A stretch of DNA of 32,978 nucleotides from a bacterium (GTDB lineage: Bacteria; Bacteroidota; Ignavibacteria; Kapaibacteriales; UBA961): positions 1-32,978 of the forward strand of contig JBJTFZ010000166.1 in NCBI GenBank assembly GCA_046093685.1, given 5' to 3'. Made by a program: the position numbers and the translations under genes. The notes under the pieces were generated by a model, which did no database searches, was not told the DNA's origin, and worked only from the letters and a program-made list of their open reading frames with translations. Shown one piece after another: positions 189 through 22,399 of the stretch (the stretch's first letter is position 1; each line of letters starts with the position of its first letter).

Positions 189-764
189 ATGAAAACACGT
201 TTAGGCACTTTGCTTGTGTTTTTTATCCTTGCAGGATTTGGCTTTGCTTCCCAGAGCCTTAATGCTCAGACTTATAACTTGAAGAACTGGGTCATTGCGG
301 GTGGTGGAGCAATGTCGATGTCTGTGGGCAATGGCATGAAGATGCATGGAACAATCGGCCAATATGCTGTTGGTTCGGTTGACCAGGGTAGTAACAAATT
401 GTTTATTGGATTCTGGGGTCCTAAAGAAGAGACTTCAACAACTGGAGTTGATGACAATACACCGGCAATTTCCGGAACAAGCGTCATTTCAAATTATCCG
501 AATCCATTTTCCATGTTGACAACAATCAACTATACAGTTCCTCAGAGTGCTGTATTGACAATTCGCGTTGTGGACATGGTTGGTCGTGAAGTAAGAATGT
601 TAATCAACAATGAGTATGCAGAATCCGGCAATCATTCCGTTCAATGGGATGCAAAAGATGATGCAGGCTCTGAAGTAAGTGCAGGTAATTATGTATGCGA
701 GATGTCACTCACATTGAATGGTGAAGTACTGAAAGCTCGCGTTCCAATGTTGCTTGTAAAATAA
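189..764 (+). CDS. Small secreted protein with T9SS type A / FlgD-Ig-like C-terminal sorting domain
   Basis: Signal peptide ending LNA|Q. Short N-domain WVIAGGG...GTIGQ...LFIGFW, then a T-rich linker. C-terminal NYPNPFS...TTINYTVP...IRVVDMVGREVRML...HSVQWDAKDDAGSEVSAGNY...MLLVK is typical of T9SS CTDs. Confidence 0.85.
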   Translation: MKTRLGTLLVFFILAGFGFASQSLNAQTYNLKNWVIAGGGAMSMSVGNGMKMHGTIGQYAVGSVDQGSNKLFIGFWGPKEETSTTGVDDNTPAISGTSVISNYPNPFSMLTTINYTVPQSAVLTIRVVDMVGREVRMLINNEYAESGNHSVQWDAKDDAGSEVSAGNYVCEMSLTLNGEVLKARVPMLLVK

Positions 765-817
765 TTTTTGAATGTAAAGTATAGTATAATTTTTATTTTC
801 TTTTCGGAGTTATCAGC

Positions 818-3800
818 ATGAGAAAAGGTTTTCTTGTTGGCTTGGCAGCAACCAGTGCATTGGCTTTGCCGATTAGCAATGTTGAGGCGCAAGTCCCTCG
901 TTTCATCACGTTCCAGGGTGTTTTGCTTGATGCAAACAATAAGCCTGTAGCGGATGGATCTTATTCAGTTCAAGTTTCATTGTATGAAACAGCATCCGGT
1001 GGGGCACCTGTTTATGTTGAATTGGCCACAGCGGTCACTTCAGGTGGTGCATTCTCCGTAGTGCTTGGTTCAGGCGCTCCTCTTCCTGCAAGTGTAGATT
1101 TCAAAGCAGGTTACTGGGCAGAGGTTAAGGTAGGTAATAATCCTCCAATGCCTCGCATGAAAATGACAACAACCGGTTATGCTTTTGCAGCTGACTATGC
1201 ATACAATGCAGCGAACGCTGCAAATGCAGCAAATGCAACATTTGCAGCAACAGCAGGTACAGCAGCTCCTTCAGGACCTGCAGGCGGAGATTTGACAGGT
1301 ACATATCCTAATCCTGAAATCAAAGCAGGTGCAGTTGGCGCAGCTGAAATTGCAGACGGTTCAATTGAACAAAGACACTTCTCAGCAAATTTGACATTTC
1401 CTCCTACAGGCCCTGCAGGTGGAGATTTGACAGCATTTTATCCAAATCCAAAGATTGCAGTTGGCGCGGTGAAAACCGTTCACATCGGTGATCTTCAAGT
1501 TATTGAGCAAAAATTGGCAACAGGCGCAGTTTCATCAAGAGCAATTCTTGATGGTACAATCGCTACAGCCGATCTTGCAGACGGTGCAGCAACCACAGCT
1601 AAAATTGCTGATGGCACAATTGCTCCAGTTGACCTTAACACAGGTTCAACAACTGCAGGCGCAAATAAATTGCTCATGGCTTCAGGTTCCAACTCACAAG
1701 AATGGTTGAATGCTCCTTCAACAGCTCATCAATCATTGCATTGGGATGGTACTTCAGTAAGCTGGAGAAAACTCACACCATCAACATTTGCAACTGAAAC
1801 AAACACAGCAGCAAACACAACAAGTGGTGTTGGTTTGAATCGTTTGCTCATGGGTACAAGCACTGACAATGGTGCAGGTGGAACACAAGGCTGGTTGAAT
1901 GCTCCAACATCAAATCGTAATGTTCTTCGTTACAATTTGGCAAGCAATTCACTCCAGTGGTCACCAAACAATGCTCTTGATTTCCCAATCGATGAAACCG
2001 GCAATCTTGCAGGTACAATGTTCAGATTGACAAATCAAGGTGCAGGCAATACCGGTGAATTCAACAATTCCAGCACAGGAACAGCAGTTGCTGCATCCAA
2101 TACAGGTAGCGGTAATGGTATTTCTTCACAAAGCAATACCGGTACAGCAATCGTAGCCAGCAGTTTGGTTGGTACAGCATTGAATGCTTCAACACAAAAT
2201 TCAGTTGGTAATACTGCAACAATCAATCACGGTGGTATTTCCGGAACTGCATTGAATGTTACACCATCAAATCCTGGTGCAACAGCAAGCGCAACCGGTA
2301 TCAATGTCACAAACTCTACACTTGGTTCATCCATCACTGTTAACAGCAATCCTACAAACTTGACATCAGTCGGTTCAGCAGCGGTTGCAGTTACACAAAA
2401 TGGCCGTGGCGAAGGTATCACAGTCAATAAGACTCGTGGTAATGCCGATAACACAACAGCCGGTGTATCAGTGACAATGGCTACAGGTTCTTCAGGAAAT
2501 GCAATTTCTGTTTCTTCAGGAAGCACATCTCCTGCAGTAAGCATTGCATCAACAAATGGTGCAGCTGCAATGGCAGTGTCAGGAAACATCAATCAGACTT
2601 CCGGCACAGCAACATTGGGCAATACAACAACAGGTACATTGAATGCAGGTAATACCGTTGTTGCAGGTACATTGAATGCAGGTGCTTCAACATTGGCTTC
2701 AGCAATCGTAACCGGCAATACAAATACCGGTTCATTGACATCAGGCACAGCGAATATCAATGGTGGAGCAAATATCAACACTGCTTCAACAGCAGTTGGT
2801 AATGCAACAAATATTGGTAATACTGGCAATCCTGTTTCAATCACAGGTAACACAGTTGGTGTAACCGGAACAACAACATTCACAGGTACAACCAGTGTAA
2901 ACGGTGGTGCATTGAATGCAAATGGCGGTTTGAATGCATCTTCCGCAACAGTTGCAGGTAACACAACTTCAGGTTCGCTGAATGTTTCAGGCCAGTCAAC
3001 ACTTGGTGCAACCAATATCGTTGGTGCAACAAATATCAATACAACTGGTGGAACAGCCACAACTACCATCGGTGGTGTGAATGGTGCTAATGTTGCAGCA
3101 GTTAATATTGCTGGTCCAATGACAGCAAGCAATGGATCCACATTGAGTGGTGGTGCTACCGTTAACGGTGGTGCAACTGTAAATGGTGGTGCTGCAATCA
3201 ATGGTGGTGCTACAATCAGTGGCACAACATCAGTAACAGGTCCAACAACAATCAACACAACCGGTACAAACACAACATCAATCGGTAATACCGGTGCTCA
3301 AACAACCATCACAGGTGGTGGTGGAGCAGTAGGTGTTGCAGTCGTTGGTAATTCAAGAGTCACAGGTAACTTGAATGTTACAGGTATCTTGTCTGCAGGT
3401 CAAATTGCATATACATCAAGTAATGCAGATCCAACCATCACAGTACAAAATACAGGTTCCGGTGCAGCAGCAGCATTCAACAATGCAGGCGCTGCAACAA
3501 CCGTTACAATTTCAGCAGGTACAGGCAATGCTCTTGGTGTACAAGGCAATGCAACAGTATCCGGCAATACAACAACCGGTACACTTAACTCAGGTTCAGC
3601 AACAGTATCCGGTAATACAACAACCGGCACATTGAATGCAGGTACAACTACACTTGGTAGTACCACAACAGGAACATTGCAGTCAGGTACAACAACAGTT
3701 GGTACATCAGCAAGCAATGCAAATCTTACCGTTAATGGAAATGCATCTGTAACAGGTAAGACAACAACAGGTACTTTGGATGCAGGTACAACCGTTATCG

Positions 3801-6800
3801 GTGGTGGTTCTGCAGCAACCGGTGCAGCATTGACTGTGAATGGAAATACCACAACAGGTACATTGAATGCAGGTAATACAGCAGTTAATGGTACACTTGG
3901 AGTTCAAGGTACAACCAATATCAACACTGCAGGTACTGCTTCAACATTCATTGGTAATTCAACAGGTGGAACGACCATCAATGGTCCTATCACTGCCGGT
4001 GCAACAAATATGTCAGCATTGACTGTTACAGGTCAATCAACACTTGCTGCAACAAATATCACCGGTACAACAAATATCAATACAAGCAATACTGCAACAA
4101 CACAAATCGGTAATGCCGTTAGCAATACCATTGTTGATGGTGCATTGCGCGTAAATGGTATCACAACTTTCGCAAACACAATCAATCAAACTGTTGGTAC
4201 AGCCACACTTGGTAATACCACAACAGGTACATTGAATGCAGGTGCATCTACACTTGCTTCAGCATCGGTTACAGGTAATACCACAACCGGTACATTGAAT
4301 TCAGGTACAACAGTTATTGGTGGTGGTTCAGCAGCAGGTTCTTCTGCATTGACTGTCAACGGTAGCTCAACAGTTACAGGTGCATTGGCAGCAGGTGCAA
4401 CAACCATTACTGGTGCATTGAATCAAAGTGGTGGAACAGCAACTCTTGGCAATACCACAACAGGTACATTGTCAGCAGGTGTTACAAATATCACAGGCGA
4501 TGCAACAATCACAAATGGTAGCTTGGCAGTAAAATCCGGCACACCAACAGTGAATCGCTTCACAGTTGATGGAACAAATGGTAATACTGTTGTTTCAGGT
4601 ACATTGAATGCAGGTGCCACAACAATTACAGGTAACCTGACTCAAAGTGGTGGAACAGCAAGTCTTGGCAATACCTCAACAGGTACATTGTCAGCCGGTG
4701 CTACAACTGCATCAAGCCTTGCACTTGGTGGTGCCACACTCGGAACAAATGTTCTTGCAGCAACAGGCACAGCAGCTATCAGTGGCAATACAACAGTTGG
4801 TGGAACACTTGGTGTTACAGGTCTTTCAACAATGAATGGTGGTGCAAATGTCAATGGTGCTACAAATGTTCGTGATGGCAACTTGACAGTTGGCACAACT
4901 TCACCTTCAGCAACAAACTTCACAGTAACACCTGCAGGTAACACAACAGTTGGTGGAACACTCGGTGTAACCGGTGCTTCAACATTGACAGGTCTTGCAA
5001 CAATGAATGGTGGTGCCACAGTAAATGGCGCTACTAATGTTACAGGTACAACTAATATCAATACAACCGGTACTAATACAACAACAATCGGTAACAATGG
5101 TGCCGCAACAGTTGTCGCTGGCGGTTTGACTGTTAGCGGTGCTAATCCTACTGGAAGTTCAGCTCTTGTTGTTAATAATACGACACAAACAGGTGCTCTC
5201 GAAGTTGTTAATAATGCGCTTGTTGGTGGTACACTAACAGTTGAAGGCAATGGATTTTTCGAAGATAACTTGGATGTTACAAATGGAGCATCAATCGGTG
5301 GTAACACTACAATTGGTGGTACTCTTGGCGTAACAGGTGCTTCAACATTGACAGGTGCAGCCACTATGAATGGTGGTGCAACAGTAAATGGTGCCACAGC
5401 ATTGAACGGTGCTTCAACATTGACAGGTGTAACCAAAATCAATAATACCGGTACCGCAACAACAACTATCGGTAACAATACAACTACAACCAATCCAACT
5501 GTAGAAGTTCTTGGTAATGTGATTGTAAACGGTGGTGTAAGCAATGGTAACACTTCTGTTGGAAATTCAACAGGAAATGGTACAGTCACCATCCAAACCG
5601 GAGATCTTGGTGAGATCAATGTTATCGGTGAATTGAACATCAATAGACAAGGTTCAGTCACACAAACAACACCTACATATATTGGTAGCCAGTATAACCC
5701 TGTAACCATCTATGATGCATTCATCGAGAAAGATCTTGATGTCCGTGAAGACTTCAATGTTGATGGTACAACAACTTTGGCAGTAACACAAATTGATGGT
5801 ACTGTTGATGTGGTTGGCGCAACCACAGTTGTTGGAACAACAAATATCAACTCACTCGGTTCAGCAGCAACTACACTTGGTAATACAAGCGCACAAATGA
5901 CCATCCGTGGTGGAAATGGCGGCGCAGACGGTGTATCAATTGTTGGTAATACAAGAGTGACCGGTAACTTCAATGTTACAGGCATCATGTCTGCAGGTCA
6001 AATTGCTTATACATCAAGCAATAATGATCCAACCATAACAGTACAAAACACAGGTACAGGATCAGCTGCATCATTCAACAATGCAAGTGCTACAAATCCA
6101 ACATTGACAGTAGCAAATTCAGGTGCAGGTGCATCACTTCAAGTGAATGGTACATCAAACTTTGCTAACACCATTACACAAACTGCAGGTACTGCAAACT
6201 TGCGTTCAACCGCAATCACAGGAACAGCAGATGTATCCGGTGCAGCAACTGTAGGCGGAACACTTGGTGTAACAGGTCTTACAACCATGAACGGTGGAGC
6301 TACAGTAAACGGTACAACTACTGCAAATGGTACAACAAACATCAATACCGGTGCAAATGCAACTGGTACCAACATTGGTAATAGTGCAAGCACAACAACA
6401 GTTCTTGGTACAGTAAACATCAACAGAACAGGTTCAGGCGCGACCGTTATTGGTAATGGTACAAGCGGAACAACAGTTGGTGGTACTCTCACAGTTGATG
6501 GAACTTCAACATTGACAGGTCTCGCCACTATGAATGGTGGTGCATCTGTCACAGGTGCTACAAATATCAATACGGGAGCTTCCACAGGTAATACCAATAT
6601 TGGTAATACAACAGGTGGAACTGTCACAATCCTTGGTACTCAAGAGCACAGAGGTGCAACATCCATCAATACAACAGGAAGCGCAGGAACATCCATCGGT
6701 AATGCAACAAGTGCAACATCAGTTGGTGGAACACTCGGTGTAACCGGCCTTGCAACCATGAGCAATGGTGCAACAGTTAATGGTGCAGCACTTACAGCAA

Positions 6801-9800
6801 ATGCAGGTGCTACAGTTGCCAATGGTTTGACAGTATCAAGTGGATCAACTTCTGTTGGTACATTGGGTGCAGGTGCAACATCGGTATCTACCCTCAATGT
6901 TAATGGTGCAACTCTTGGCTCAAATAGATTGGCAGTCAATGGAAGCGCAGATGTTTCCGGAGCTACCACAGTTGGTGGAACACTCGGTGTGTCCGGTCTT
7001 TCATCTTTGAGCGGTGGTGCTACAGTTACCGGTGCAACTTCCATCAATACAACAGGAAGTGCAGGAACAACCATCGGTAATGCATCAAGTGCAACATCAG
7101 TTGGTGGAACACTCGGTGTAACCGGCCTTGCAACCATGAGCAATGGTGCAACAGTCAACGGTGCAGCACTTACAGCAAATGCAGGTGCTACAGTTGCCAA
7201 TGGTTTGACAGTATCAAGCGGTACAACATCAGTTGGTGCTTTGTCCGCAGGTGCAACAACCCTTACCGGTCTCACAAACATCAATACAAGTTCAACAGGA
7301 AATACCAATATCGGTAATGCAACCGGTACCACAACAATTGCCGGTACAACCGACATCAATGTTACAGGTACTGCTCTTACAAGAATTGGTAATTCAACTG
7401 GCGCTGGTTCAGCAACACAAGTAAATGGTACTCTTGCAGTTTCAGGTGCAACAACACTTGCGTCAGCAGGCGTAACTGGTGCTTTGACAGCCGGATCACT
7501 TGCGGTTAATGGTGCTGTACTTGGTGGAAATGCTTTTGCAGTACAAGGTACATCAAATGTTTCCGGTAACTCAACTGTTGGTGGAAACCTTACAGTGACC
7601 GGTTCATCAACTTCAGGTAATGGTGCTACAATCAATGGTGCAGCGCTTACAGCAAATGCAGGTGCTACAATCAATGGTGGTGGTACAATCAACGGTGGTG
7701 CTACTGTTTCCGGTACAACAAATATCAATACCTCAGGTACTGCAACAACAACAATTGGTAATGCAGCAGGCCCAGGAGCAGTTGTCCTCAATGGTGGTAC
7801 AACAATCAACAATGGTGGTACAATCAATGGTGGTGCAACAGTCAATGGTGCAGTGCTTACAGCAAATGCAGGTGCAACAGTCAATGGCGCAGTGCTTACA
7901 GCAAATGCAGGTGCTACAGTTGCCAATGGTTTGACAGTATCAAGCGGTACAACATCAGTTGGTACTTTGACTGCAGGTGCTACAACACTTACCGGTCTTA
8001 CAAACATCAACACATCCGCAACAGGAAATACCAATATCGGTAATGCAACAGGTACCACAACAATTGCCGGGACAACCGACATCAATGTCACAGGTACTGC
8101 TCTTACAAGAATTGGTAATTCAACTGGTGCTGGTTCAGCAACACAAGTAAATGGTACTCTTGCAGTTTCAGGTGCTTCAACATTGGCATCTGCTACTGTT
8201 ACTGGTGCAACAAATATCAATACCACTGGTACTGCAACCACAACAATTGGTAATGCAGCAGGTCCTGGTGCAGTTGTCCTCAATGGTGGTACAACCATCA
8301 ACAATGGTGGTACAGTCAATGGTGGTTTGACAGTAGCAACAGGTTCAACTTCAGTTGGAACTTTGAGCGCAGGCGCTACAACAGTAGTTGGTACAACAAA
8401 TATCAATGCTACTGGTACAGCATCAACAAATATTGGTAATGCAACAGGCGGTACAACAATCGTTGGACCTACAACACACACAGGTGCTACAACAATAAAT
8501 GGTGGTTTGCTTGATGTAAATGCAGGTGCAGATGTAACTGGTGGTCTTACAGTCAGCGGTGGTGGTTTGAATGTTACATCCGGTGGTGCAAGTATCACAG
8601 GTACATTATCTTCATCACAACTTGCAACATTTAGTAATGGTGCAACAGTTAACGGTGCAGTTCTTGATGTTAACAATGGCGCAGACATTTCCGGTGGATC
8701 TGGACTTGTTGTTTCCGGTGGTGGTGCAAATGTCACCGGTGGCTTGATAGTAGCTACAGGCAACATGTCTACATCAGCAGGTACAATCACAGCAAGCAAT
8801 GGCTTGATAGCAACCACAGGTGGTGTTACAGCAACAGCAGGTGGTGTTACAGCAACAGCAGGCGGTGTTACAGCAACAGCTGGTGGCTTTACAGCGAGAA
8901 ATGGTGGTGGAATCACAGTATCTGACGGTGCTCCCGGAACAACCAGATTCTCTGTTGATGGAACAAATGGTAACACAGTTGTTGGTGGTACATTGAATGC
9001 AGGTGCTTCAACATTGGCTTCTGCTTCAGTAACAGGTGCTTTGAGCGCTGCAACAGGTACTATCAATGGTGGTTTGGCTGCAGGTTCTGAGTTCACAGTG
9101 AATGGTGATGCTGATGTTACATTGACACTTGATGTAACAGGCGCAACTTCACTTGGTTCAACACTAGGTGTAACCGGACTATCCACATTGAGCGGTGGTG
9201 CAACAATTACCGGTGTTACATCCATCAATGGTGGTGCCTCAGCATCAGCGACAACAATCGGTAATGTTGCAAGTGCTACAACAGTTGGTGGAACACTTAC
9301 ATCTTCCGGTTTGCTCACAGCAAGCAATGGTTTGAGTGTGACCGGTACAACAAGCATGTCGGGACTTTTAACCACAGCAACAGGTATTACCAACAATTCC
9401 GGTAATATCATCAGTTATACCGGTGGTAATCTAAACTTGTATTCAAGTGCTCCCGGCGATCCTTTGGACCTGAAATTTACAGTAGCTGGTGCAACAGGTA
9501 ATACTCAAACCGATGGTTCACTTCAAGTTGACGGTGGTATTACTGCATCAAATGGTATTACCGCATCAACAGGTGGGGTAACAGCATCGACCGGAACAAT
9601 CAGAGCAACTGCTGGTCAAGTTAGAGCAGGTACCGGATTCCTTGCTGATGCAGGTGGTGTTCAATTCACTGGTAAACTTCAAAGTAATGTTGTTAATGTT
9701 CTTGCTGCAGGAGATCTCGATCCTGTAAATGGTGCAGTATTCCAAATTTTAAATACTTCAGGAGTAGCATGGGACTTGGCAAGTATCAATGTTGCAAATG

Positions 9801-9940
9801 CCCAGCCTGGTATGGTTATTTGGATTTATGACCAAGATGGTGAACTAAATATTACTGGAACATATGACCTGCCTGCAAATCAAGTTGCTTGCTGTGTATA
9901 TGTAAACGGTGCTTGGAGACTTGTTAATACAGATATCTAA
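818..9940 (+). CDS. Giant (3040 aa) secreted beta-strand-repeat fibre/adhesin-like protein
   Basis: Signal peptide ending VEA|Q. N-domain ITFQGVLLD...GSYSVQVSLY...FSVVLG...PRMKMTTTGYA resembles FCB tail-fibre-like proteins. Two PxGPAGGDLTxxYPNPxI motifs and AKIADG repeats follow, then about 2500 aa of G/T/N/A/S/V repeats and a short globular C-terminus ending YVNGAWRLV. Strong GGT/ACA/GCA/AAT codon bias. Confidence 0.85.
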   Translation: MRKGFLVGLAATSALALPISNVEAQVPRFITFQGVLLDANNKPVADGSYSVQVSLYETASGGAPVYVELATAVTSGGAFSVVLGSGAPLPASVDFKAGYWAEVKVGNNPPMPRMKMTTTGYAFAADYAYNAANAANAANATFAATAGTAAPSGPAGGDLTGTYPNPEIKAGAVGAAEIADGSIEQRHFSANLTFPPTGPAGGDLTAFYPNPKIAVGAVKTVHIGDLQVIEQKLATGAVSSRAILDGTIATADLADGAATTAKIADGTIAPVDLNTGSTTAGANKLLMASGSNSQEWLNAPSTAHQSLHWDGTSVSWRKLTPSTFATETNTAANTTSGVGLNRLLMGTSTDNGAGGTQGWLNAPTSNRNVLRYNLASNSLQWSPNNALDFPIDETGNLAGTMFRLTNQGAGNTGEFNNSSTGTAVAASNTGSGNGISSQSNTGTAIVASSLVGTALNASTQNSVGNTATINHGGISGTALNVTPSNPGATASATGINVTNSTLGSSITVNSNPTNLTSVGSAAVAVTQNGRGEGITVNKTRGNADNTTAGVSVTMATGSSGNAISVSSGSTSPAVSIASTNGAAAMAVSGNINQTSGTATLGNTTTGTLNAGNTVVAGTLNAGASTLASAIVTGNTNTGSLTSGTANINGGANINTASTAVGNATNIGNTGNPVSITGNTVGVTGTTTFTGTTSVNGGALNANGGLNASSATVAGNTTSGSLNVSGQSTLGATNIVGATNINTTGGTATTTIGGVNGANVAAVNIAGPMTASNGSTLSGGATVNGGATVNGGAAINGGATISGTTSVTGPTTINTTGTNTTSIGNTGAQTTITGGGGAVGVAVVGNSRVTGNLNVTGILSAGQIAYTSSNADPTITVQNTGSGAAAAFNNAGAATTVTISAGTGNALGVQGNATVSGNTTTGTLNSGSATVSGNTTTGTLNAGTTTLGSTTTGTLQSGTTTVGTSASNANLTVNGNASVTGKTTTGTLDAGTTVIGGGSAATGAALTVNGNTTTGTLNAGNTAVNGTLGVQGTTNINTAGTASTFIGNSTGGTTINGPITAGATNMSALTVTGQSTLAATNITGTTNINTSNTATTQIGNAVSNTIVDGALRVNGITTFANTINQTVGTATLGNTTTGTLNAGASTLASASVTGNTTTGTLNSGTTVIGGGSAAGSSALTVNGSSTVTGALAAGATTITGALNQSGGTATLGNTTTGTLSAGVTNITGDATITNGSLAVKSGTPTVNRFTVDGTNGNTVVSGTLNAGATTITGNLTQSGGTASLGNTSTGTLSAGATTASSLALGGATLGTNVLAATGTAAISGNTTVGGTLGVTGLSTMNGGANVNGATNVRDGNLTVGTTSPSATNFTVTPAGNTTVGGTLGVTGASTLTGLATMNGGATVNGATNVTGTTNINTTGTNTTTIGNNGAATVVAGGLTVSGANPTGSSALVVNNTTQTGALEVVNNALVGGTLTVEGNGFFEDNLDVTNGASIGGNTTIGGTLGVTGASTLTGAATMNGGATVNGATALNGASTLTGVTKINNTGTATTTIGNNTTTTNPTVEVLGNVIVNGGVSNGNTSVGNSTGNGTVTIQTGDLGEINVIGELNINRQGSVTQTTPTYIGSQYNPVTIYDAFIEKDLDVREDFNVDGTTTLAVTQIDGTVDVVGATTVVGTTNINSLGSAATTLGNTSAQMTIRGGNGGADGVSIVGNTRVTGNFNVTGIMSAGQIAYTSSNNDPTITVQNTGTGSAASFNNASATNPTLTVANSGAGASLQVNGTSNFANTITQTAGTANLRSTAITGTADVSGAATVGGTLGVTGLTTMNGGATVNGTTTANGTTNINTGANATGTNIGNSASTTTVLGTVNINRTGSGATVIGNGTSGTTVGGTLTVDGTSTLTGLATMNGGASVTGATNINTGASTGNTNIGNTTGGTVTILGTQEHRGATSINTTGSAGTSIGNATSATSVGGTLGVTGLATMSNGATVNGAALTANAGATVANGLTVSSGSTSVGTLGAGATSVSTLNVNGATLGSNRLAVNGSADVSGATTVGGTLGVSGLSSLSGGATVTGATSINTTGSAGTTIGNASSATSVGGTLGVTGLATMSNGATVNGAALTANAGATVANGLTVSSGTTSVGALSAGATTLTGLTNINTSSTGNTNIGNATGTTTIAGTTDINVTGTALTRIGNSTGAGSATQVNGTLAVSGATTLASAGVTGALTAGSLAVNGAVLGGNAFAVQGTSNVSGNSTVGGNLTVTGSSTSGNGATINGAALTANAGATINGGGTINGGATVSGTTNINTSGTATTTIGNAAGPGAVVLNGGTTINNGGTINGGATVNGAVLTANAGATVNGAVLTANAGATVANGLTVSSGTTSVGTLTAGATTLTGLTNINTSATGNTNIGNATGTTTIAGTTDINVTGTALTRIGNSTGAGSATQVNGTLAVSGASTLASATVTGATNINTTGTATTTIGNAAGPGAVVLNGGTTINNGGTVNGGLTVATGSTSVGTLSAGATTVVGTTNINATGTASTNIGNATGGTTIVGPTTHTGATTINGGLLDVNAGADVTGGLTVSGGGLNVTSGGASITGTLSSSQLATFSNGATVNGAVLDVNNGADISGGSGLVVSGGGANVTGGLIVATGNMSTSAGTITASNGLIATTGGVTATAGGVTATAGGVTATAGGFTARNGGGITVSDGAPGTTRFSVDGTNGNTVVGGTLNAGASTLASASVTGALSAATGTINGGLAAGSEFTVNGDADVTLTLDVTGATSLGSTLGVTGLSTLSGGATITGVTSINGGASASATTIGNVASATTVGGTLTSSGLLTASNGLSVTGTTSMSGLLTTATGITNNSGNIISYTGGNLNLYSSAPGDPLDLKFTVAGATGNTQTDGSLQVDGGITASNGITASTGGVTASTGTIRATAGQVRAGTGFLADAGGVQFTGKLQSNVVNVLAAGDLDPVNGAVFQILNTSGVAWDLASINVANAQPGMVIWIYDQDGELNITGTYDLPANQVACCVYVNGAWRLVNTDI
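6653..7218 (+). repeat. Intragenic near-identical duplication, 6653-6840 vs 7031-7218 (offset 378 bp, in frame)
   Basis: Both copies read ggtgcaac-tccatcaatacaacaggaag...ggtttgacagtatcaag with a few substitutions. Confidence 0.9.
7169..8175 (+). repeat. Intragenic near-identical duplication, 7169-7449 vs 7895-8175 (offset 726 bp, in frame)
   Basis: Both copies run cttacagcaaatgcaggtgctacagttgcc...ctcttgcagtttcaggtgc and encode ...TTDINVTGTALTRIGNSTGAGSATQVNGTLAVSGA. Confidence 0.9.
8819..8881 (+). repeat. Tandem 21-bp repeat x3 (GGVTATA)
   Basis: ggtggtgttacagcaacagca twice, then ggcggtgttacagcaacagct. Confidence 0.95.
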
Positions 9941-9986
9941 TCTGACTAATTAGTTTTTCGTATAATCTAAGTTATCCATTCAATAC

Positions 9987-10017
9987 AAAAGCGACCACTT
10001 CGGTGGTCGCTTTTTTT
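9987..10017 (+). terminator. Rho-independent terminator closing the fibre operon
   Basis: aaaagcgaccac-TTCG-gtggtcgctttt perfect hairpin with a UUCG loop and a T7 tail. Confidence 0.95.
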
Positions 10018-10094
10018 ATTTGTGGAAATGTGAAGCATTTGCTACTTTGCTCATGTTCAAAAGGGGATTCCACTCATTATCAATATTCACCGCC

Positions 10095-12293
10095 ATGCAA
10101 TATTCTCTTTTCATCTTATTAATGTTTTCATGTATCACAACATGTATGGTCAAGGCGCAATTTGTTCGTCAATGGCAAAGCATGTCTTCCATGTATGCCG
10201 TCAATGCACTTGCAAGCATCAATGGCACTGTGTATGCCGGCACAAAAGGCGGTATGTGTTCCTATGATATTTCAAGCAAAGAAAAACGCTATTGGCGCGT
10301 GAGCGATTCAACATTGCTGACCTCCACCATCACCACCATTGCGCATGATTCGGTTTCCGGTTTGCTATGGCTCGGTGCGGAAAATGGTGCGATCATGACA
10401 TATCATCCACGCTATGAAATCTGGACAAGCATCACCGCAGTGCTCACGGCACAAATGCAGGGCATCGCATCCAAACGCATAACAGGATTTGTCCATCATA
10501 AAGGAATCACCTATTGCGCCGGAGATTTCGGCATCATCACCTTCAAAGGAATCATACCCGGAGATTGGATTAAATTCATAGGAAGCATACCCATAGGCAC
10601 CGGCATTTCATCGCTTGCCATCATGCAGGACACACTCTGGGTTGGAACAGAAAAAGGATTGGCAAAAGCAGGCATCAATTCAACATTGCAAGATATCTCC
10701 TCATGGAAAGTGATCGGCAATCAACCCGTGATGTCCATCATTCCCAAGAATGATACATTGCTCGTGGCCGAACAGAATGCATTGACATTCATCGTGAAAG
10801 GAACTATTCAACAACAAAACATCGCAGGCCAAACAGGGCTGAATGGTTTGTCCGTGCATGATGAAACCATACTCTATGGCACGGCAAATGGCATTTATGC
10901 ATTTCCTTCGAATCAACTCGTGAAAAGTATTTCCAATAGCGGACATCATCGTTTGCAGGATGGATCCGTGATGGCGAAACTTCAGAGTGGAGGAATGGCA
11001 TATATTTCAGCCGGCAAGCTCGATACCATTCTCCCGAATACACCCGCGGGAAGTCTCTATGGCGCTCTCTCAGTGGATGCATCCTCCAATCTATGGGTTT
11101 GCATGAATGAAGGATATGTGGGCTTCTTTGACGGAATTAATTGGAGCAATTTCACACGCACGAATATCTTCGGAAACAAAGCCATAGGCAATTCCCGCTT
11201 CAATGCATTGACGCCGATGATGAATGGAGGAATGTGGATTGGTAGTTTTGGAAATGGATTCGCGCAAGGTTTTTCCAATGGACAAACCATCACTTTTTCT
11301 CCAATGGATGATAATGCACGGTCAGTTTTGGCAATCAATGCCGGAGATTATACCGTGTCCGGAAAAGTGGCCGAAGATCGAGATGAATCAGTATGGATTC
11401 CACGACTCACCACAGGCACGGACGGTGGACTCATCGTCAGAAAAAATCCTGATGGAACATATACATCGTATCAAGGCACTGCGCGTAGCAAGAAATTCAC
11501 GATTGCCGAGGTGGACAATAATCGCACCGTGTGGCTTGGAGCGCCAAAATCAAATACAGGTGATGGGAATGTGTATTATTTCAATCAAAAAAACACCCTG
11601 AATGATGAATCCGATGATATGCGCGGAGAAGCAAATATCAGCGATGTGAATGTTATCAAAAAAGATGCATCCGGATTCATGTGGTTCGGCACAAGTTCGG
11701 GTTTGAGCGTGATCTATTCACCCGGGAATGCAGTATCAGGAAGACCGCTTAACATCACGGCCATAACGGCATTGAAAGGACAAGTGGTGAATGACATTGC
11801 AATCGATGCAGTGAACAATAAATGGATTGCCACCGAGAATGGACTCTTCGTGCTAAGCGAAGATGGTTCCGAACTCATTGAAACATATACGATGCGTAAT
11901 ACCATATTGCAAAGTTCTTCCATCAAGACCATCGCCATCGATAAAGCAAAAGGGATCGTCTATGTTGGAACCGATGAAGGATTGTATCGAGGATATACAA
12001 CCATCGTGAATCCTCAACCCGATTATTCCAGCATTCGATGCTTTCCGCAACCATTCAATCCTGATATCCATCAATCAGTGACCATAGAAGGATTATCCGA
12101 ACAAACAGGTATTTCAATCGTGAGTCCGGCAGGCTTGCCCGTGCGCAGTCTCACAACGCAAAGTGGAAGGATTATTTGGGACGGAATGAATGATCGGGGA
12201 GAATTGGTTGGCTCGGGAGTCTATCTCATCATTGCACAATCAGGAAATTTGGATCAATCCGGCATCGTAAAATGCATGGTGATACGAAAATGA
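10095..12293 (+). CDS. porZ: PorZ-like T9SS beta-propeller protein with C-terminal sorting domain
   Basis: ATG at 10095 gives a signal peptide (VKA|Q) followed by QWQSMSSM. Propeller repeats include VNDIAIDAVNNKWIATENGLFVLSEDG and VYVGTDEGL. CTD CFPQPFNP...VTIEGL...IIWDGMNDRGELVGSGVYLI matches PorZ architecture. Confidence 0.8.
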   Translation: MQYSLFILLMFSCITTCMVKAQFVRQWQSMSSMYAVNALASINGTVYAGTKGGMCSYDISSKEKRYWRVSDSTLLTSTITTIAHDSVSGLLWLGAENGAIMTYHPRYEIWTSITAVLTAQMQGIASKRITGFVHHKGITYCAGDFGIITFKGIIPGDWIKFIGSIPIGTGISSLAIMQDTLWVGTEKGLAKAGINSTLQDISSWKVIGNQPVMSIIPKNDTLLVAEQNALTFIVKGTIQQQNIAGQTGLNGLSVHDETILYGTANGIYAFPSNQLVKSISNSGHHRLQDGSVMAKLQSGGMAYISAGKLDTILPNTPAGSLYGALSVDASSNLWVCMNEGYVGFFDGINWSNFTRTNIFGNKAIGNSRFNALTPMMNGGMWIGSFGNGFAQGFSNGQTITFSPMDDNARSVLAINAGDYTVSGKVAEDRDESVWIPRLTTGTDGGLIVRKNPDGTYTSYQGTARSKKFTIAEVDNNRTVWLGAPKSNTGDGNVYYFNQKNTLNDESDDMRGEANISDVNVIKKDASGFMWFGTSSGLSVIYSPGNAVSGRPLNITAITALKGQVVNDIAIDAVNNKWIATENGLFVLSEDGSELIETYTMRNTILQSSSIKTIAIDKAKGIVYVGTDEGLYRGYTTIVNPQPDYSSIRCFPQPFNPDIHQSVTIEGLSEQTGISIVSPAGLPVRSLTTQSGRIIWDGMNDRGELVGSGVYLIIAQSGNLDQSGIVKCMVIRK

Positions 12294-12393: not shown

Positions 12394-13242
12394 TTGAAGA
12401 TTGTACCCGTGGAAAAACCACTGCGTTTGACAAATGACGGAACCCTCGAAATCGTATTTCTCGGTGTGGGTGGAGCATTTTCTCAGACGCTGTTCAATAC
12501 CAATTTCCTAATCATCAAAGGAGATGCACATCTCCTTGTCGATTTTGGAACGACGGGTCCATTCTCATTGCCTGCCTCCACGGGCTTGACATTATCGGAC
12601 ATACAAGCCATACTTCCCACGCATAGCCATTGTGACCATATCGGCGGGATAGAATCCCTCGCATTATGGAATCGTTATGTGGCCATACCCCAATTTGGCA
12701 AACACAAAATTTCCATGATCATTTCCGAAGAATATGAGGACATATTGTGGAATCAATCATTGCGCGGTGGAATGGAACAGAATGAATATTCATCGGAAGG
12801 AAAGCCACTTGCAATGAGCGATTTCTTTGACATCATTCGTCCGAATTGGTTGGAGCGCGAACCCCGTCTGCGTTTGGAGTTGGATTGGAATGGCATACAC
12901 ATTGAACTCTTCGGCACCAATCATGTGCCTGAGCAGGCATCGAGTGCATCGAGTGCATTCATCACGCATGGATTGCATATTGATGGTCGAGTGTTTTTCT
13001 CGGGTGATACCAAGTTCGACAAAGAACTATTGAATATGTATGCCGATCGGTCTGAATACATGTTTCATGATGCATCGTTTTTCCCCAATCCCGTTCATGC
13101 ATCACTTGAAGAATTGAGAACACTCCCTTCATCCATCAAAGAAAAAATGTTTCTCGTGCATTATGGCGATGCACATGCGCAGTATTCCGTTGAAGAGTTT
13201 TGCGGTTTCACGCAAAAAGGCATGCGCTATATTTTTGATTGA
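12394..13242 (+). CDS. MBL-fold metallo-hydrolase, Apyc1-like putative cyclic-nucleotide phosphodiesterase
   Basis: FLGVGGAF, LLVDFG, THSHCDHIGG (HxHxDH), LWNQSLRGG, FFSGDT, MFHD, VHASLEELRTLP, LVHYGD. TTG start with AAGGAAG upstream. Confidence 0.8.
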   Translation: MKIVPVEKPLRLTNDGTLEIVFLGVGGAFSQTLFNTNFLIIKGDAHLLVDFGTTGPFSLPASTGLTLSDIQAILPTHSHCDHIGGIESLALWNRYVAIPQFGKHKISMIISEEYEDILWNQSLRGGMEQNEYSSEGKPLAMSDFFDIIRPNWLEREPRLRLELDWNGIHIELFGTNHVPEQASSASSAFITHGLHIDGRVFFSGDTKFDKELLNMYADRSEYMFHDASFFPNPVHASLEELRTLPSSIKEKMFLVHYGDAHAQYSVEEFCGFTQKGMRYIFD

Positions 13243-13907
13243 TTCGATTTACCGCCCATCAACTTTGCCAGCAAATCACTGCTGAACACCATTTGCAGGG
13301 AAGCTTCCACTTCGATGTCTTTCTTCATCAATTGTTGCAATTGTTCTTTATCCCAGAGCAGACATCTCGTTTCATCGATAGTGGTGACGGTTGCGGTTGT
13401 CAAATTCCCCGAAAGAAAACTCATCTCTCCCACGAATTGTCCATTACGCACATAACTCACCGTTTTCCCATCCACTTCGATCTTTGCGAGACCATCGGAA
13501 ATCAAGGCCAATTTGTCGATTGCGGTGTTTTGATGCACCATCACGAAATCAATTGGCAGATCTTCATATCCGGCGATATTGAGCAGTTTGCGATATGCAG
13601 TTTTCGGCATGTGTTTGAAAACTTTTGCATGGAGTGACAATTCTTCATCGGTGAATTTCAGATTTTTTCTTTCGCGGTAGAGCATCGTGAATTGCCAGGC
13701 ATTGACGATGATGTAGAATCCACACCACACGATTTCCGCCCATTCCGGTTTATGCAAATCACGGAAGTGATATACCATTTCGATATTGAATCCGATGATG
13801 ATCAATACGCGAAGCCACAAGATGTCCTTGACGATGAAACCCGCCAGATAAAACATGTTGAAGATGCTTGTGATAAGGAATTCGGTGAGCGAGATTTGGT
13901 TTTGCAT
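13227..13907 (-). CDS. Popeye-like membrane protein with a cyclic-nucleotide-binding domain
   Basis: N-terminal hydrophobic helices with KDILWLRVL and WCGFYIIVN. Linker EELSLHAKVF. CNBD LALISDGLAKI...GQFVGEMSFL...TATV...WDKEQL. No HTH. Confidence 0.85.
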   Translation of the reverse strand: MQNQISLTEFLITSIFNMFYLAGFIVKDILWLRVLIIIGFNIEMVYHFRDLHKPEWAEIVWCGFYIIVNAWQFTMLYRERKNLKFTDEELSLHAKVFKHMPKTAYRKLLNIAGYEDLPIDFVMVHQNTAIDKLALISDGLAKIEVDGKTVSYVRNGQFVGEMSFLSGNLTTATVTTIDETRCLLWDKEQLQQLMKKDIEVEASLQMVFSSDLLAKLMGGKSNQSKI

Positions 13908-14011: not shown

Positions 14012-17000
14012 ATGATTCGCTTTCTTCTGATACTCCTTTTTATATGTCCGCTTCAGGCATGGTCCACCGAGCTTTGCCTGATGTTCCCCATATCTCTGGA
14101 AGATCGCGTGAAGTCTGCCGAGCTTATCATTGAAGCGGAAGTGATGAGTGATTCAGTGTTTGCCACTTCATCCCCATACATGATTCACACCGCATATCGT
14201 TTGCGCATCATTGGTGTGATGAAAGGGAATGCATCCGGATTGATAAGCATGGTTGTGGAGGGAGGTCGATTGGGTGACAGAGCATTGGTCACAAGACCAA
14301 CTTTGCAACAAGAGATTGGTTCTCGTGGAATATTTTTTCTCAAGAAATCACATATGGGATTTACGCCCTTTGCCGGACCACAGGGAATCATTCTCAAGGA
14401 TGAATCGGGTAAAGCGCGTGAACCATTTCGAACATATTCATCAATGCTTGATGCCATTGAACGTATCGTTGCATTGACGGGTATTCCATATACATATAAG
14501 CCTGATATTTTTCGAGAAGAAAAAGGTGAGAAAATTCTTGCCGCAAGCATCAACTCCATAAGTCCAACCACTTCCACTGCAGGAAGAGGATCCGTTCTGA
14601 CGATAAATGGTTCCGGTTTTGGAGCATTGAGAACAGGGAATGCAAAAGTAGAATTCAAAAATGGAAATGATGGCGGCGCATCATGGACTGCACCCGCAAG
14701 TGCGGAATATGTTTCATGGTCTGATGCGGAAATAAAAGTGAAGATTCCGACATTGGCCGGGACGGGACAGATCCGCGTGACTGCTTCCGACAATTCAACT
14801 GCGGTTTCGGGTCAAACACTCACGATCGATTATTCATTGTTGAATACATCGCTCAATCGCATTTGGCTTCGCGGGCAAAATGGCAATGGCGGACATACAT
14901 TCACATTCAATACTGCATTTGGAGTGAATCCGACAGATTCATATAAAAGAGCATTGCAGAGTTGGCGTTGCAATGCATTCGTGAACTTTGGTGTGAGTGC
15001 AACAACAACTGCCATTGATCAATCTGCAAAAGATAATGTGAATGTTGTGTCATTCAATGCAAATTTGCCGGCAGGTGCATTGGGCGTGACATATAATTGG
15101 TATGCAGGCTGTGCTTCGGACCAATGGTATAATGATGAATTCGACATGATCTTTGCACCTTCTCCCGGTACGGGATGGAATTTTGGTCCGGGAGCCACAA
15201 CTGGAAACAGATATGATTTTGAAACAGTGGCATTGCATGAATTGGGTCATGCAGTTCAACTTGGGCATGTGATCAATGCAAATTATGTGATGCATTATGC
15301 ATTGGGACCGAATTCCGACAAGCGTACATTGAATGCGGTTTCGGATATCGCGGGCGGGAATGATGTGGTAACATTTTCAACAACAACGAAGCCATGTGGT
15401 CCTGCAATCATGCAGGCATTGAATGCGAACAATTGTGCATTGTTCGCTCCGCCGATAGCTGCATTTTCAGCGACACCCACATCAGGATGTTCGCCGATGC
15501 AGGTGCAATTCACGGATCAAAGTCAGAATAATCCAACAAACTATGCTTGGGACATAGACAATAATGGAACAACGGATTATGTCACTCAGAATCCAATGCA
15601 TGTTTATTTGAATCCCGGAACATATAGCGTTCGTTTGACAGTGACGAGTGGCAGTGGTACGAATTCACTCACGATGACAAACATGATCACCGTGAATCAA
15701 TCGCCCACTGCACAAGGCAGGGGTAGCATCATGCCATGCCAAGGAACACAGCAAGAGCTTGGTCCGATCAATGCTCCCACGGGTGGTTTGCCACCATATA
15801 CATATTCATGGTCACCCACGACGGGCTTGAGCAATCCAAATACATTGAATCCGACACTTGCCATAAATTTCACGAATCAAAGAGTATATGCATTGTCGAT
15901 TTCCGATCAGCGCGGTTGCACCATTGTCGTGCGAGATACAATCATGCCGAATCCCGAACTTATCGTGAGTGCGGGGGCAGATCGTTCCGAATGTTCGGGT
16001 GCAATCGTCACACTAGGAGGGGAGCCAACAGTTGTCGGAGGAACACCGCCATATATCTATGCATGGTCGCCAACAAATGCAGTAAGTTCTTCCGTGATTG
16101 CAAATCCTACGGCGATCATTCGCCAAACACAGCAATTCATGTGCACGGTGACGGATGCAAGAGGATGCGTCAAACGCGATACGGTGTTCATCACAAAACA
16201 TCCCGATTTGATAGTGAATGCAGGTTCCGACAAACTCTTGTGCATGAATGCTCAGGATACTCTTGGAGGAAAGCCATCGGTTCAGGGAGGAATGCCGCCC
16301 TATCAATATCAATGGATTCCCGCCACAGGTTTATCGAGTGGCACAATTGCTAATCCAATCATCATATCACCGCAGACACGCACTTATGTTTTGCAAGTCA
16401 CTGATGCTGTCGGCTGCATCATGCGCGATACCATGCAAGTCACTGCAATACTTCCTGTAAAACCCACAATAAGGATTGTGAGCGGTAAACAGGAATTGTG
16501 CGGGGGTGACAGCATTGTTCTTGAAGCCATGGGAGATATTTCTTCATATCGCTGGAAGGATGGATCAACCAAAAAGACGATTGTCATTCGCACTAGTGAC
16601 ACTGTTTTTGTGATCGGTACGACTGCGAGTGGTTGCTCCATGAAATCGGATTCACTCATCATCAAAAAAACCGATGCGCCGAATATGCAATTCTCGGGTA
16701 ATACGGTGGTATGTCCCGGTGAATTCATCACACTTCGAGCGAATCCCGCAAAGAATTTCACGCAGACATGGAAAGTGACGGGGGGAATCATTGGCGGACC
16801 AAATACGCTTGACTCCGTCATGGTTCAAGTATATGAAAGCGGTTATATTACTCTTGAGCGACGATTGGGTCAATGCGTGTATGTCTCAGGCGATTCACTC
16901 AGGGTGCATCCTCGTATCACGGCCAAAATCACGGCGCAGGGAAAGAACAAGCCTTGCATTGGAGACACTGTCATACTCAAAGTTGAAGGAGTGTTGAAGA

Positions 17001-21072: not shown

Positions 21073-21160
21073 TATCTGTTTTTGCATGAACAATTTAGTG
21101 CTTCAGCAAAGAAACACGAAACAAATTCGAATATACTTTTTTCACCCCCGGTTTATCATC

Positions 21161-22399
21161 ATGAACATCCACGAGTATCAAGCGAAAGAATTATTGCGGA
21201 AGTACAATGTACCCGTATTGAAAGGGAAGCCAGTGTTTTCCGCCGAAGAGGCATTGGAAATCACCAAGACGGAATTCATCGACAGTGGCATCAATGTGGT
21301 TGTCTTGAAATCACAAATTCATGCTGGCGGTCGTGGAAAAGGAATCATCCATCACACAACCACGAGAGAAGTGGTTGAATTGTATGGAAAGCCTGTTCGC
21401 GGAGTGACGGTCATTCATGACGGAGACATTGCGGAGAAGGCGAGAGAATATGCTCATGCAACAATTGACAATACGCTTGTAACCATTCAGACTGGCGAAT
21501 CCGGAAAAGTGGTGCGTCGCATGTTCATCGAGGAAGGCTGCAAGATTGCTCATGAATATTATTGCAGTATTCTTTTGGATCGTGACACAGCCCGTAATAT
21601 CATCATGGTTTCCACCGAAGGTGGTATGGACATTGAGGAAGTTGCAGAGCATACACCCGAGAAAATTTTGAAAGAATATATTGATCCAAGCATTGGATTT
21701 CAGCAGTTTCAGGCTCGCAGACTGGCATTTGGTTTGGGTTTGAGCGGACAAGCCTTCAAGAGTTTCGTGTCATTCATCGGTACATTGTATCATGCCTATG
21801 AAGACATGGATTGCAGCATGTTGGAAATCAATCCACTTGTCGTCACCGAAGATGGTGAATTCATTGCATTGGATGCAAAAGTCAATTTTGATGACAATGC
21901 CTTGTATCGTCATGCTGAGTTTTTGGACATGCGTGACATCGAGGAAGAAGATCCACTCGAAGTAGAAGCATCAAAATTCAATTTGAATTATATCAAACTT
22001 GATGGAAATGTTGGGTGCATGGTGAATGGAGCCGGCTTGGCGATGGCCACCATGGACATCATTCAACTTGCAGGTGGAAAACCCGCAAACTTTTTGGATG
22101 TAGGCGGCGGAGCGAATGTTGAGCGCATCGCCAATGCCTTTCGCATCATGACAAATGATCCTGCCGTTGAATGTGTTCTCATCAATATCTTTGGTGGTAT
22201 CGTGCGTTGCGATCGCGTCGCAAATGGCATTGTGCAAGCACTCAAGCAAGTCTCCGTTTCAACACCCGTCATTGTGCGCCTTGAAGGAACCAATGCAATC
22301 GAAGCAGGTGAAATTCTTAAAAACTCAGGCATGGAATTCTTGGTGGCAACAACACTCGAAGATGCAGCGAATAAAGTCACCCAAGCCTTGACACATTGA
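21161..22399 (+). CDS. sucC: Succinate--CoA ligase (ADP-forming) beta subunit
   Basis: MNIHEYQAKELL, KSQIHAGGRGK, STEGGMDIEEVA, EINPL, GCMVNGAGLAMATMD, PANFLDVGGGA, NIFGGIVRCD, VRLEGTN. Confidence 0.98.
   Translation: MNIHEYQAKELLRKYNVPVLKGKPVFSAEEALEITKTEFIDSGINVVVLKSQIHAGGRGKGIIHHTTTREVVELYGKPVRGVTVIHDGDIAEKAREYAHATIDNTLVTIQTGESGKVVRRMFIEEGCKIAHEYYCSILLDRDTARNIIMVSTEGGMDIEEVAEHTPEKILKEYIDPSIGFQQFQARRLAFGLGLSGQAFKSFVSFIGTLYHAYEDMDCSMLEINPLVVTEDGEFIALDAKVNFDDNALYRHAEFLDMRDIEEEDPLEVEASKFNLNYIKLDGNVGCMVNGAGLAMATMDIIQLAGGKPANFLDVGGGANVERIANAFRIMTNDPAVECVLINIFGGIVRCDRVANGIVQALKQVSVSTPVIVRLEGTNAIEAGEILKNSGMEFLVATTLEDAANKVTQALTH

Follow-up and report, generated by a model that had tools for sequence, protein, structure and literature searches.

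The question raised by the locus described here is how a very long, fibre-like protein with no recognizable sorting signal of its own could be displayed at the surface of a bacterium. The locus lies at the beginning of a DNA stretch of 32,978 nt (the window, meaning the whole stretch analyzed), which is the entire contig C166 (JBJTFZ010000166.1) of the metagenome-assembled genome (MAG) GCA_046093685.1, a 1.8 Mb, 71% complete genome from the Kapaibacteriales (Bacteroidota; Ignavibacteria; UBA961). Gene 1 (189..764, + strand) encodes a protein of 191 amino acids (aa), and gene 2 (818..9940, + strand) a protein of 3040 aa, hereafter the fibre. Type IX secretion system (T9SS) cargo is defined by a C-terminal domain (CTD) on the same chain, which is normally needed for export and for anchoring to anionic lipopolysaccharide (A-LPS). 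In the original prediction, made from the sequence alone, the gene 1 product was seen as a small CTD-bearing adaptor that binds the N-terminal domain of the fibre and either carries it through the T9SS or tethers it to the surface, so that the CTD would act in trans.

The adjacency of the two kinds of genes turned out to be widely conserved across genomes, and sequence comparison supports the view that they form a conserved functional pair. The same pairing also occurs with a different, YLP-box tail on the small protein; therefore, the shared function is more likely docking or anchoring than carriage by the T9SS. Pairing across anchor types makes the small protein a candidate anchor of fibres resembling the mosaic adhesive trimers (MATs) of Bdellovibrio. 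That it is, more precisely, a surface adaptor or anchor for the N-terminal end of the fibre is the simplest reading of the data, held at about even odds. The parts themselves are of known kinds, namely a cargo with a T9SS CTD and a fibre of MAT-like type. The features of the two genes are listed below (all on the + strand; pLDDT, predicted local distance difference test).

189..266, + strand: signal peptide of gene 1, aa 1-26 (cut between SLNA and Q), read from the translation and kept in 12 aligned orthologues
267..428, + strand: N-domain of gene 1, aa 27-80, the GGG/TIGQ/GFW docking-domain candidate, from invariant columns and a profile search
429..491, + strand: linker of gene 1, aa 81-101, Thr/Ser/Asp-rich, from variable alignment columns and low pLDDT
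492..764, + strand: T9SS type A C-terminal sorting domain of gene 1, aa 102-191, with the stop codon, from TIGR04183, PF13860, PF18962, and Foldseek
765..817, + strand: intergenic spacer between genes 1 and 2, 53 nt, without a terminator-like site on the + strand
818..889, + strand: signal peptide of gene 2, aa 1-24 (cut between NVEA and QVP), read from the translation and kept in 6/6 aligned fibres
890..1228, + strand: N-terminal beta-rich domain of gene 2, aa 25-137, MAT-like, from NF053851 (E = 2.9e-6)
1229..2017, + strand: conserved proximal region of gene 2, aa 138-400, with an Ala/Asn neck, two G-DLTG-YPNP repeats, and WLNAP/HWDG repeats
2018..9667, + strand: shaft of gene 2, aa ~401-2950 (~2550 aa), from composition and periodicity
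9668..9940, + strand: C-terminal globular tip of gene 2, aa ~2951-3040 (~90 aa), with the stop codon, from low orthologue identity
9987..10021, + strand: intrinsic terminator at the end of the two-gene unit, hairpin and T-run

The original account of both protein architectures was correct, and so was that of the transcription unit, two genes 53 bp apart ending at one strong terminator, which is confirmed by the open reading frame (ORF) coordinates and by a folding test. The hairpin at 9987-10014 has a 12-bp stem followed by a T-run (-22.6 kcal/mol, z = -7.1), with 0/200 shuffles as good.

The two signal peptides were read from the sequence, that of gene 1 as a hydrophobic N-terminus. The mature part of gene 1 begins with a domain of ~50-55 aa bearing the motif WVIAGGG...GTIGQ...IGFWGP (residues ~33-78), whose W, V, I, GG, TIGQ, and GFWG columns are invariant in nine orthologues; no Pfam family matched this domain. 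The CTD scored 23.1 bits with TIGR04183 (borderline, for a cut-off of 23), 31 bits with PF13860 (cut-off 27), and 21.3 bits with PF18962 (below the cut-off of 27), while that of the orthologue L016 reached 28.8 bits. In an AlphaFold2 model based on a 50-row alignment, the CTD had a pLDDT of 96-98, and a Foldseek search with this model returned FlgD immunoglobulin-like (Ig) domains, PorZ (5m11), PorU (6za2), and NucA, a T9SS substrate matched through its CTD (8glk_D). Four hallmarks of a type A cargo were found for gene 1: a Sec signal, a CTD family match, an Ig-like beta-sandwich, and T9SS genes in the genome. Modeled alone, the N-domain had a pLDDT of 45-72; such a poorly folded model fits a domain that would fold on a partner, although it is no proof of this.

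Family scans and reading of the sequence confirmed that gene 2 has a Sec signal and no detectable trace of the other export or anchoring elements looked for, i.e., a T9SS CTD, an autotransporter barrel, a lipobox, or an S74 chaperone domain. At E<=1, neither Pfam nor NCBIfam yielded a family for the whole protein, and its last 250 aa matched 0 NCBIfam families at E<=0.01; no sequence relative was found in the PDB below E = 0.23. Specifically, there was no Pfam or NCBIfam match at E<=1 to the YadA-type anchor barrel of trimeric autotransporter adhesins, and no S74 domain by Pfam, which places the fibre among the non-S74 kind. A cryptic CTD, which would have spoken against the original prediction, was searched for and none of type A or type B was detected by hidden Markov models or profile-profile comparison, the hhalign probability of the fibre tip against the CTD-bearing small-protein family being 0.5%. 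A lipoprotein nature was considered and rejected, as the first 2900 residues contain no Cys, this residue making up 0.1% of the protein and lying entirely near the C-terminus.

The whole protein is rich in T (20%), G (17.5%), A (13%), and N (10.5%), D, E, K, and R are each mostly at 0-2% per 200-aa block of the shaft (4% at most), and the identity autocorrelation of the shaft is maximal at a lag of 6 (0.197 vs a mean of 0.136). The YPNP repeats lie at aa 163 and 208. Orthologous fibres are 1807, 2879, 3040, and >3315 aa long; their first 400 aa are 81-89% identical to those of gene 2 in close orthologues and 54% in L016, while the last 300 aa are only 18-42% identical. As judged from these alignments, the conserved N-terminal 400 aa and the divergent end are what would be expected if the proximal end of the fibre were fixed and its distal end were diversifying. 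Of the nine orthologous contigs, five stop inside the fibre gene. At L011 (10629-14707), the fibre ORF ends at 1210 aa and resumes in another frame (a 165-aa ORF, 14210-14707), through either a frameshift or faulty assembly within the repetitive shaft.

The N-terminal 150 aa of gene 2 match NF053851 (Bdello_MAT_N) over positions 9-82 of this 162-position model, at 27.2 bits (E = 2.9e-6, cut-off 60), and this model matches 6/6 Bacteroidota fibres tested, with E-values from 8e-10 to 4e-3. On the strength of such profile matches, gene 2 is called MAT-like and not a MAT member; it would be a distant relative of the Bdellovibrio fibres. By analogy with MATs, and with the S74 trimer-chaperone domains present in 8/58 complete relatives, it is probably trimeric. 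The tips of the relatives are mosaic, with S74, Collar, Phage_depo_C, DUF7452, and collagen families. The tip of gene 2 itself gave an AlphaFold2 model (3-row alignment) with a pLDDT of 51.5, which is too poor for fold comparison. Among ESM Atlas clusters, those closest to this tip consist of unnamed phage proteins (score 0.94), and Phage_depo_C and comparable families come just below them; these neighbors constitute a lead only. The last 111 aa had no homologue at E<=0.01 among proteins of 1672-5320 aa, and a jackhmmer search with the last 130 aa slid into the low-complexity shaft and was discarded. If the ~2550 shaft residues rise by 0.48 nm per 6-8 residues, the fibre would be ~150-200 nm long, a value that is arithmetic on an assumed fold. 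In this uncultured lineage, it may serve as an appendage for adhesion or cell contact.

Gene neighborhoods support a functional link. In all counts given below, ten loci that matched the CTD alone (L018-L027) were excluded, and the loci are kin and, hence, non-independent, so that the counts overstate independent events. Close orthologues of gene 1 sit in records labelled Ignavibacteria, Kapaibacteriota, or Bacteroidota, and in 9/9 orthologous loci gene 1 is followed by a fibre gene 39-58 nt on. Among 401 sampled genomes of the phylum, a profile of the first 400 aa of the fibre matched in 122 (ORFs of about 200 to 4100 aa), and a first profile of the gene 1 N-domain in 20, giving 24 places outside the own genome (19 Bacteroidota genomes). 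At 21 of these 24 places, the small-domain gene directly adjoins a fibre ORF with a gene 2-type N-domain, and one more (L051) adjoins a fragmented fibre, which makes 22/24; L047 and L049 are orphans. Both gene orders, small-fibre and fibre-small, were found. This first profile proved too narrow, and an iterated one was used later: at 60 loci without a partner at the first search, it revealed an adjacent small-domain ORF for 31/66 fibre ORFs. Over all sets, 65/101 fibre ORFs have an adjacent small-domain ORF, with a median gap of 19 nt and 60/65 gaps within 100 nt. The small proteins are regularly CTD-bearing (TIGR04183 in 28/31 of the first set; PF18962 or PF13860 in 25/31 newly found partners), and TIGR04183 was found in 0/21 complete partnered fibres. 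No fused ORF with both domains was found among 153 small-domain and 155 fibre-domain ORFs. The idea that the small domain is homologous to the fibre N-domain, as a split or mimicked unit, was discarded, the hhalign probability being 0.5%.

Several variants of the arrangement were observed. Tandem small-fibre-small-fibre arrays occur at L032, L034, and L038 (genomes G373, G217, and G389), where there are two distinct small-domain subtypes, each retained together with a particular fibre type from one genome to the next. The iterated profile detects only two ORFs in the own genome: gene 1 and, on C251, one for a protein of 307 aa, the latter directly 3' of an open-ended, fibre-like ORF of 640 aa. 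This protein belongs to a second small-domain class of ~300-340 aa, which has an extra middle part before the CTD and is mostly encoded downstream of the fibre (G000:C251:1903-2826, L041, L044, L046, L047, L051, L067, L070, L086, and L093). At L047, L051, and on C251, the gene of this class is followed by one whose product ends in an OmpA-like motif, '...EGRFYSR.V...'.

What follows the small domain is not constant. A search of 1.84 billion representatives with the small-domain profile yielded 159 proteins at E<=1e-3, mostly of 85-110 or 180-200 aa, in which the domain is followed by a T9SS CTD, a YLPLVLR-type end, a dockerin, or an IFxNGFE-like end. The YLPLVLR end corresponds to NF050076, 'YLP-box putative sorting motif' (13-14.6 bits, just below the cut-off of 15), and the GCP end to NF041540, 'GC-type dockerin' (44-48 bits). 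A metagenome scan with five YLP-class proteins gave 80 loci, in which fibre N-domains were detected with a profile of 60 Bacteroidota fibres (E<=1e-3), counting small genes with >=1500 nt upstream. On these contigs, 31/34 YLP-tail genes lie directly 3' of a gene for a fibre with the same kind of N-domain, and 3/10 YLP-class fibres weakly match NF053851. Other settings of the small domain, seen in P0029, P0067, and P0116, are two or three tandem copies within a chain (P0029 has three matched stretches) and larger proteins that contain dockerin or thrombospondin-type repeats; a chain with three copies would match a partner of three-fold symmetry.

A further relation was found with NF058579 (PamT), the predicted tip protein of the Pam pilus of the candidate phyla radiation (CPR). 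Its positions ~31-80 match the small domain in 14/14 family members at E<=0.1 (E-values from 8.5e-9 to 0.09, 7/14 at E<=0.01, two of the queries being mature N-domains without signal peptide), with scores of <=35 bits for a cut-off of 240. Gene 1 itself had no match to NF058579 at E<=1 and is, therefore, no PamT member. A tail fibre-like protein is consistently co-located with the pam operon, according to a preprint (PMC13278184). This sub-threshold sequence connection is no more than a lead.

The immediate surroundings of the pair in close relatives point to the T9SS. In all nine orthologous loci (gene 1 identity 49-79%, 10-kb flanks), the order is porU-porV-(glycosyltransferase-like membrane protein)-(~970 aa)-gene 1-fibre, with porU identified by NF033707 (796 bits) and porV by NF033709/NF033710 in the relatives' loci. 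A porZ gene stands 3' of the fibre in the 3/3 loci with a visible fibre end (the window, L012, and L014); in the window it is the following feature.

10020..12293, + strand: porZ (T9SS A-LPS delivery protein), conserved 3' neighbor of the fibre gene, from NF052228 (276.9 bits, cut-off 260) and PF21544

The contig begins 188 nt 5' of gene 1, and the upstream genes lie outside the window. Elsewhere in the own genome, PorU (781 bits) is found at the end of contig C174, as synteny predicts, and SprA (664 bits) on C162, in addition to PorZ (277 bits); PorV was seen only in the relatives' loci.

These observations can be assembled into a mechanism. Gene 2 would form a very long, probably trimeric, phage-like and MAT-like fibre whose N-terminal domain is at the cell-proximal end, and the ~50-aa GGG/TIGQ/GFW domain of gene 1 would dock this conserved end; the domain architectures, the T9SS genes, and the pairing across anchor types are observed, and the docking, the bound end, and the trimer stoichiometry are inferred from them. 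The C-terminal module of the small protein would supply the surface-sorting signal proper to each lineage, here a T9SS type A CTD. The adaptor could, thus, be exported by the T9SS, its CTD removed by the sortase PorU, and its linkage made to A-LPS delivered by PorZ, leaving a stub of ~75 gene 1 residues on the outer surface to hold the fibre. The parts given here to PorU and PorZ follow PMC8545088 and general knowledge of the T9SS. In the literature covered (subscription-only papers and supplements being outside this coverage), no description was found of the small domain, its pairing with fibres, T9SS piggy-backing, or YLP-box and GC-dockerin tails.

Complex prediction with three copies of fibre aa 25-147 and three of gene 1 aa 27-95 gave scores of 0.08 and 0.05 for a mark of 0.32, in a job that was unlike the calibration, had no controls, and involved a partner of uncertain fold; it speaks neither for nor against binding. 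A number of results weigh against an adaptor mounted in this way. In a mirror-tree analysis of 51 pairs, the fibre N-domain correlated with the small N-domain at r = 0.67 and with the CTD of the small protein at r = 0.64 (partial correlations 0.44 and 0.36); as both parts correlate almost alike with the fibre, the signal is explained by shared history. Small genes are not always present: 36/101 fibre ORFs have no adjacent one, 7 of these 36 being cut by contig ends, and the own genome encodes a complete 790-aa fibre on C30 without such a neighbor. The GC-dockerin class lies beside a fibre in 1/11 loci. Distant relatives (L041, L044, L086, and L051, the last at a fibre end) combine a partner with weak CTD-like C-termini of the fibre. 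The porU/porV/porZ surroundings are restricted to the nine close loci and were not seen in distant cassettes, for which ~2.5 kb of flank were covered; GldM had no match in the own 71%-complete genome, although its model matched nowhere; and the MAT likeness of gene 2 remains sub-threshold, at 27 bits for a cut-off of 60. Finally, complete unpartnered fibres carry a CTD in cis in 0/28 cases. The expected complementarity between cis and trans, with fibres that have no partner carrying their own CTD, is rejected on this count, which also indicates that a CTD is no general requirement of the fibre family. The notion of a CTD-in-trans module, hence, survives in part: the pairing is conserved, the fibre has no detectable CTD, and T9SS genes are present, but the expected complementarity did not materialize.

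Among the other explanations, the least unlikely is hitch-hiking: once folded in the periplasm, the fibre would be bound by the adaptor, and the CTD of the latter would take the whole complex across the SprA translocon, as a T9SS export signal that works in trans. In its favor are the Sec signal of the fibre together with its lack of a detectable CTD, the T9SS genes on either side of the pair, and the report that folded cargo of very large size, the 6497-aa SprB being an example, is moved by the T9SS through the 36-strand SprA barrel (PMC9251779). Against it stand the pairing with a YLP-box tail, the 0/28 unpartnered fibres with a CTD in cis, and the lack of a literature precedent for T9SS piggy-backing in the search described above. 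MAT fibres, moreover, exist in Bdellovibrio, which is not known to have a T9SS; together with the CTD-less YLP pairing, this means that fibre export cannot depend on the T9SS in general. Carriage by the T9SS as the core function of the module, which the original prediction had offered as one of its two options, was, thus, not upheld (31/34 YLP-tail genes are paired without a CTD), and a crossing of the outer membrane by hitch-hiking in this particular lineage is speculative and rather unlikely. A bolder version would make the small domain a universal plug that mounts MAT-like trimeric fibres on each lineage's anchor (T9SS CTD and A-LPS, YLP-box, GC-type dockerin, or the pilin of the CPR Pam pilus) and the surface element of the MAT N-domain, with the CTD-less 3040-aa fibre hitch-hiking via the T9SS as the first T9SS export signal in trans; taken as a whole, this is a doubtful proposition.

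A different function for the small protein would be that of a fibre-specific assembly factor or chaperone, like the assembly proteins of phage tail fibres, its tail serving only to bring it to the folding compartment. The tight one-to-one adjacency, including the tandem cassettes, would agree with this, as would the phage-like nature of the fibres (Peptidase_S74 in 8/58; Collar, Phage_depo_C, and DUF7452 tips) and the lack of confident folding of the N-domain alone. Nevertheless, covalent anchoring modules (CTD, dockerin, or sorting motif) would be of no obvious use to a chaperone, varied anchoring tails on a constant domain fit an anchor better, and S74 fibres have their own intramolecular chaperone, yet those at L061, L091, and L099 keep the partner. 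This reading is, therefore, held to be improbable.

Somewhat less credence still is given to export of the fibre in cis by a divergent C-terminal signal, the small CTD protein being a separate minor component such as a base plate, a cap, or a regulator. It draws on the CTD-like ends of L044 (E = 0.0094), L041 (E = 0.007), and L086 (PF18962, 24.2 bits), and on a tip model too poor to judge its fold. L086 also accounts for the one Por_Secre_tail match, sub-threshold, in a second set of 58 complete fibres, 8/58 of which end in Peptidase_S74. The window fibre, in contrast, matched no family at E<=1 and gave an hhalign probability of 0.5% with the CTD-bearing family, the nearest ESM Atlas clusters of its tip are phage proteins (a lead only), and this tip is the least conserved part of the protein, unlike a sorting signal. 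The least probable case, that the small gene encodes an independent T9SS cargo merely co-transcribed and co-inherited with the fibre and making no contact with it, is compatible with the absence of a predicted interface and with a mirror-tree explained by shared history, but it has little to say about an adjacency that persists despite changes in gene order, fibre length (about 250 to 4100 aa), tip type, and sorting tail, that reaches unrelated metagenome lineages, and that involves a domain otherwise so rare that both of its ORFs in the own genome lie beside fibre-like ORFs.

If the small protein is indeed a surface adaptor or anchor, a filament relying on the CTD of a separate 191-aa partner would widen the definition of T9SS cargo, and CTD-based predictions would miss such passengers. 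A 50-aa docking domain with interchangeable anchors (CTD, YLP-box, and dockerin) would amount to a simple modular rule for the display of long fibres, which could guide the annotation of small hypothetical proteins in their thousands and the engineering of surface display. The conserved small partner gene also offers a concrete candidate for the element that binds the N-domain of the Bdellovibrio MATs, which are involved in prey recognition (PMC10769870). Compared with the original prediction, the MAT likeness, the breadth of the pairing, the other sorting tails, and the porU-porV/porZ setting are new.

The remainder of the window holds no phage genes, according to a family scan of its proteins. 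At 23063-27337 (+), it encodes a 1424-aa T9SS cargo with an IgGFc_binding match (137 bits), ASH/HYDIN-type Ig domains, and a Por_Secre_tail CTD (33 bits); this ordinary giant with its CTD in cis contrasts with gene 2 on the same contig. Downstream of porZ, a metallo-beta-lactamase (MBL)-fold protein gene at 12394-13242 (+), matching PF23023 (anti-Pycsar Apyc1; 101 bits, cut-off 50), is convergent with a gene for a cyclic-nucleotide-binding (PF00027) protein at 13227-13907 (-), with a 16-nt overlap, and the couple is a possible cyclic-nucleotide hydrolase and sensor in a chromosomal setting. Two genes of central carbon metabolism, an ATP-grasp_2/Ligase_CoA protein gene (21086-22399, +; sub-threshold match to ATP-citrate synthase) and an aconitase gene (27486-29726, +), are unrelated to the pair.

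Set beside known systems, gene 1 shares with canonical T9SS cargo, anchored on A-LPS via PorU, PorV, and PorZ, its signal peptide and type A CTD, and the genome contains SprA, PorU, and PorZ; the difference lies in the shortness of its functional part, ~55 aa, and in the large passenger being a separate, CTD-less chain. No T9SS cargo delivered or anchored through the CTD of a partner was found in the literature within the same coverage. SprB of Flavobacterium johnsoniae, a giant T9SS adhesin, bears a type B CTD on its own chain, and its dedicated partner SprF belongs to the outer membrane and is PorP-like. As in that couple, the gene for a giant repetitive surface filament stands here next to a small dedicated accessory gene, whereas gene 2 has no type A or B CTD match and its partner is a CTD cargo. 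Transport in trans does have parallels in other machineries than the T9SS: in Tat hitch-hiker export and peroxisomal piggy-back import, a folded partner lacking a signal is carried across a membrane by the signal of another subunit (PMC9251779). In PamT, the matching stretch is followed by a pilin-type Ig domain rather than by a CTD.

Phage tail fibres, mounted through an adaptor or the baseplate, are trimeric and combine a conserved N-terminal attachment end with a variable receptor-binding tip. The same polarity is found in the fibre described here, the tip families of its relatives are common to phages, and its ESM Atlas tip neighbors are of phage origin; both products, in contrast, have Sec signals, and the locus is chromosomal, between T9SS genes.

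The closest comparison is that with the MATs. All 21 Bdellovibrio MATs have a beta-rich domain, conserved and ~130 aa in length, after the signal peptide, trimerization is invariant, and the authors place the N-domain beside the cell, where its presumed binding partner is some surface element that has yet to be identified (Caulton et al. 2024, PMC10769870). No anchor or partner of MATs is named in the available part of a 2026 review (PMC13689555). Gene 2 is about three times longer than the MAT constructs of roughly 1000 aa (PMC10769870), its host is a T9SS-bearing MAG of the Bacteroidota phylum, and it has a conserved small partner gene, while none is named for MATs in the available parts of PMC10769870 or PMC13689555. 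What the two share is the order of parts, from a signal peptide through a beta-rich N-domain and a long fibre to a mosaic, phage-like tip, with both S74 and non-S74 subtypes among the relatives.

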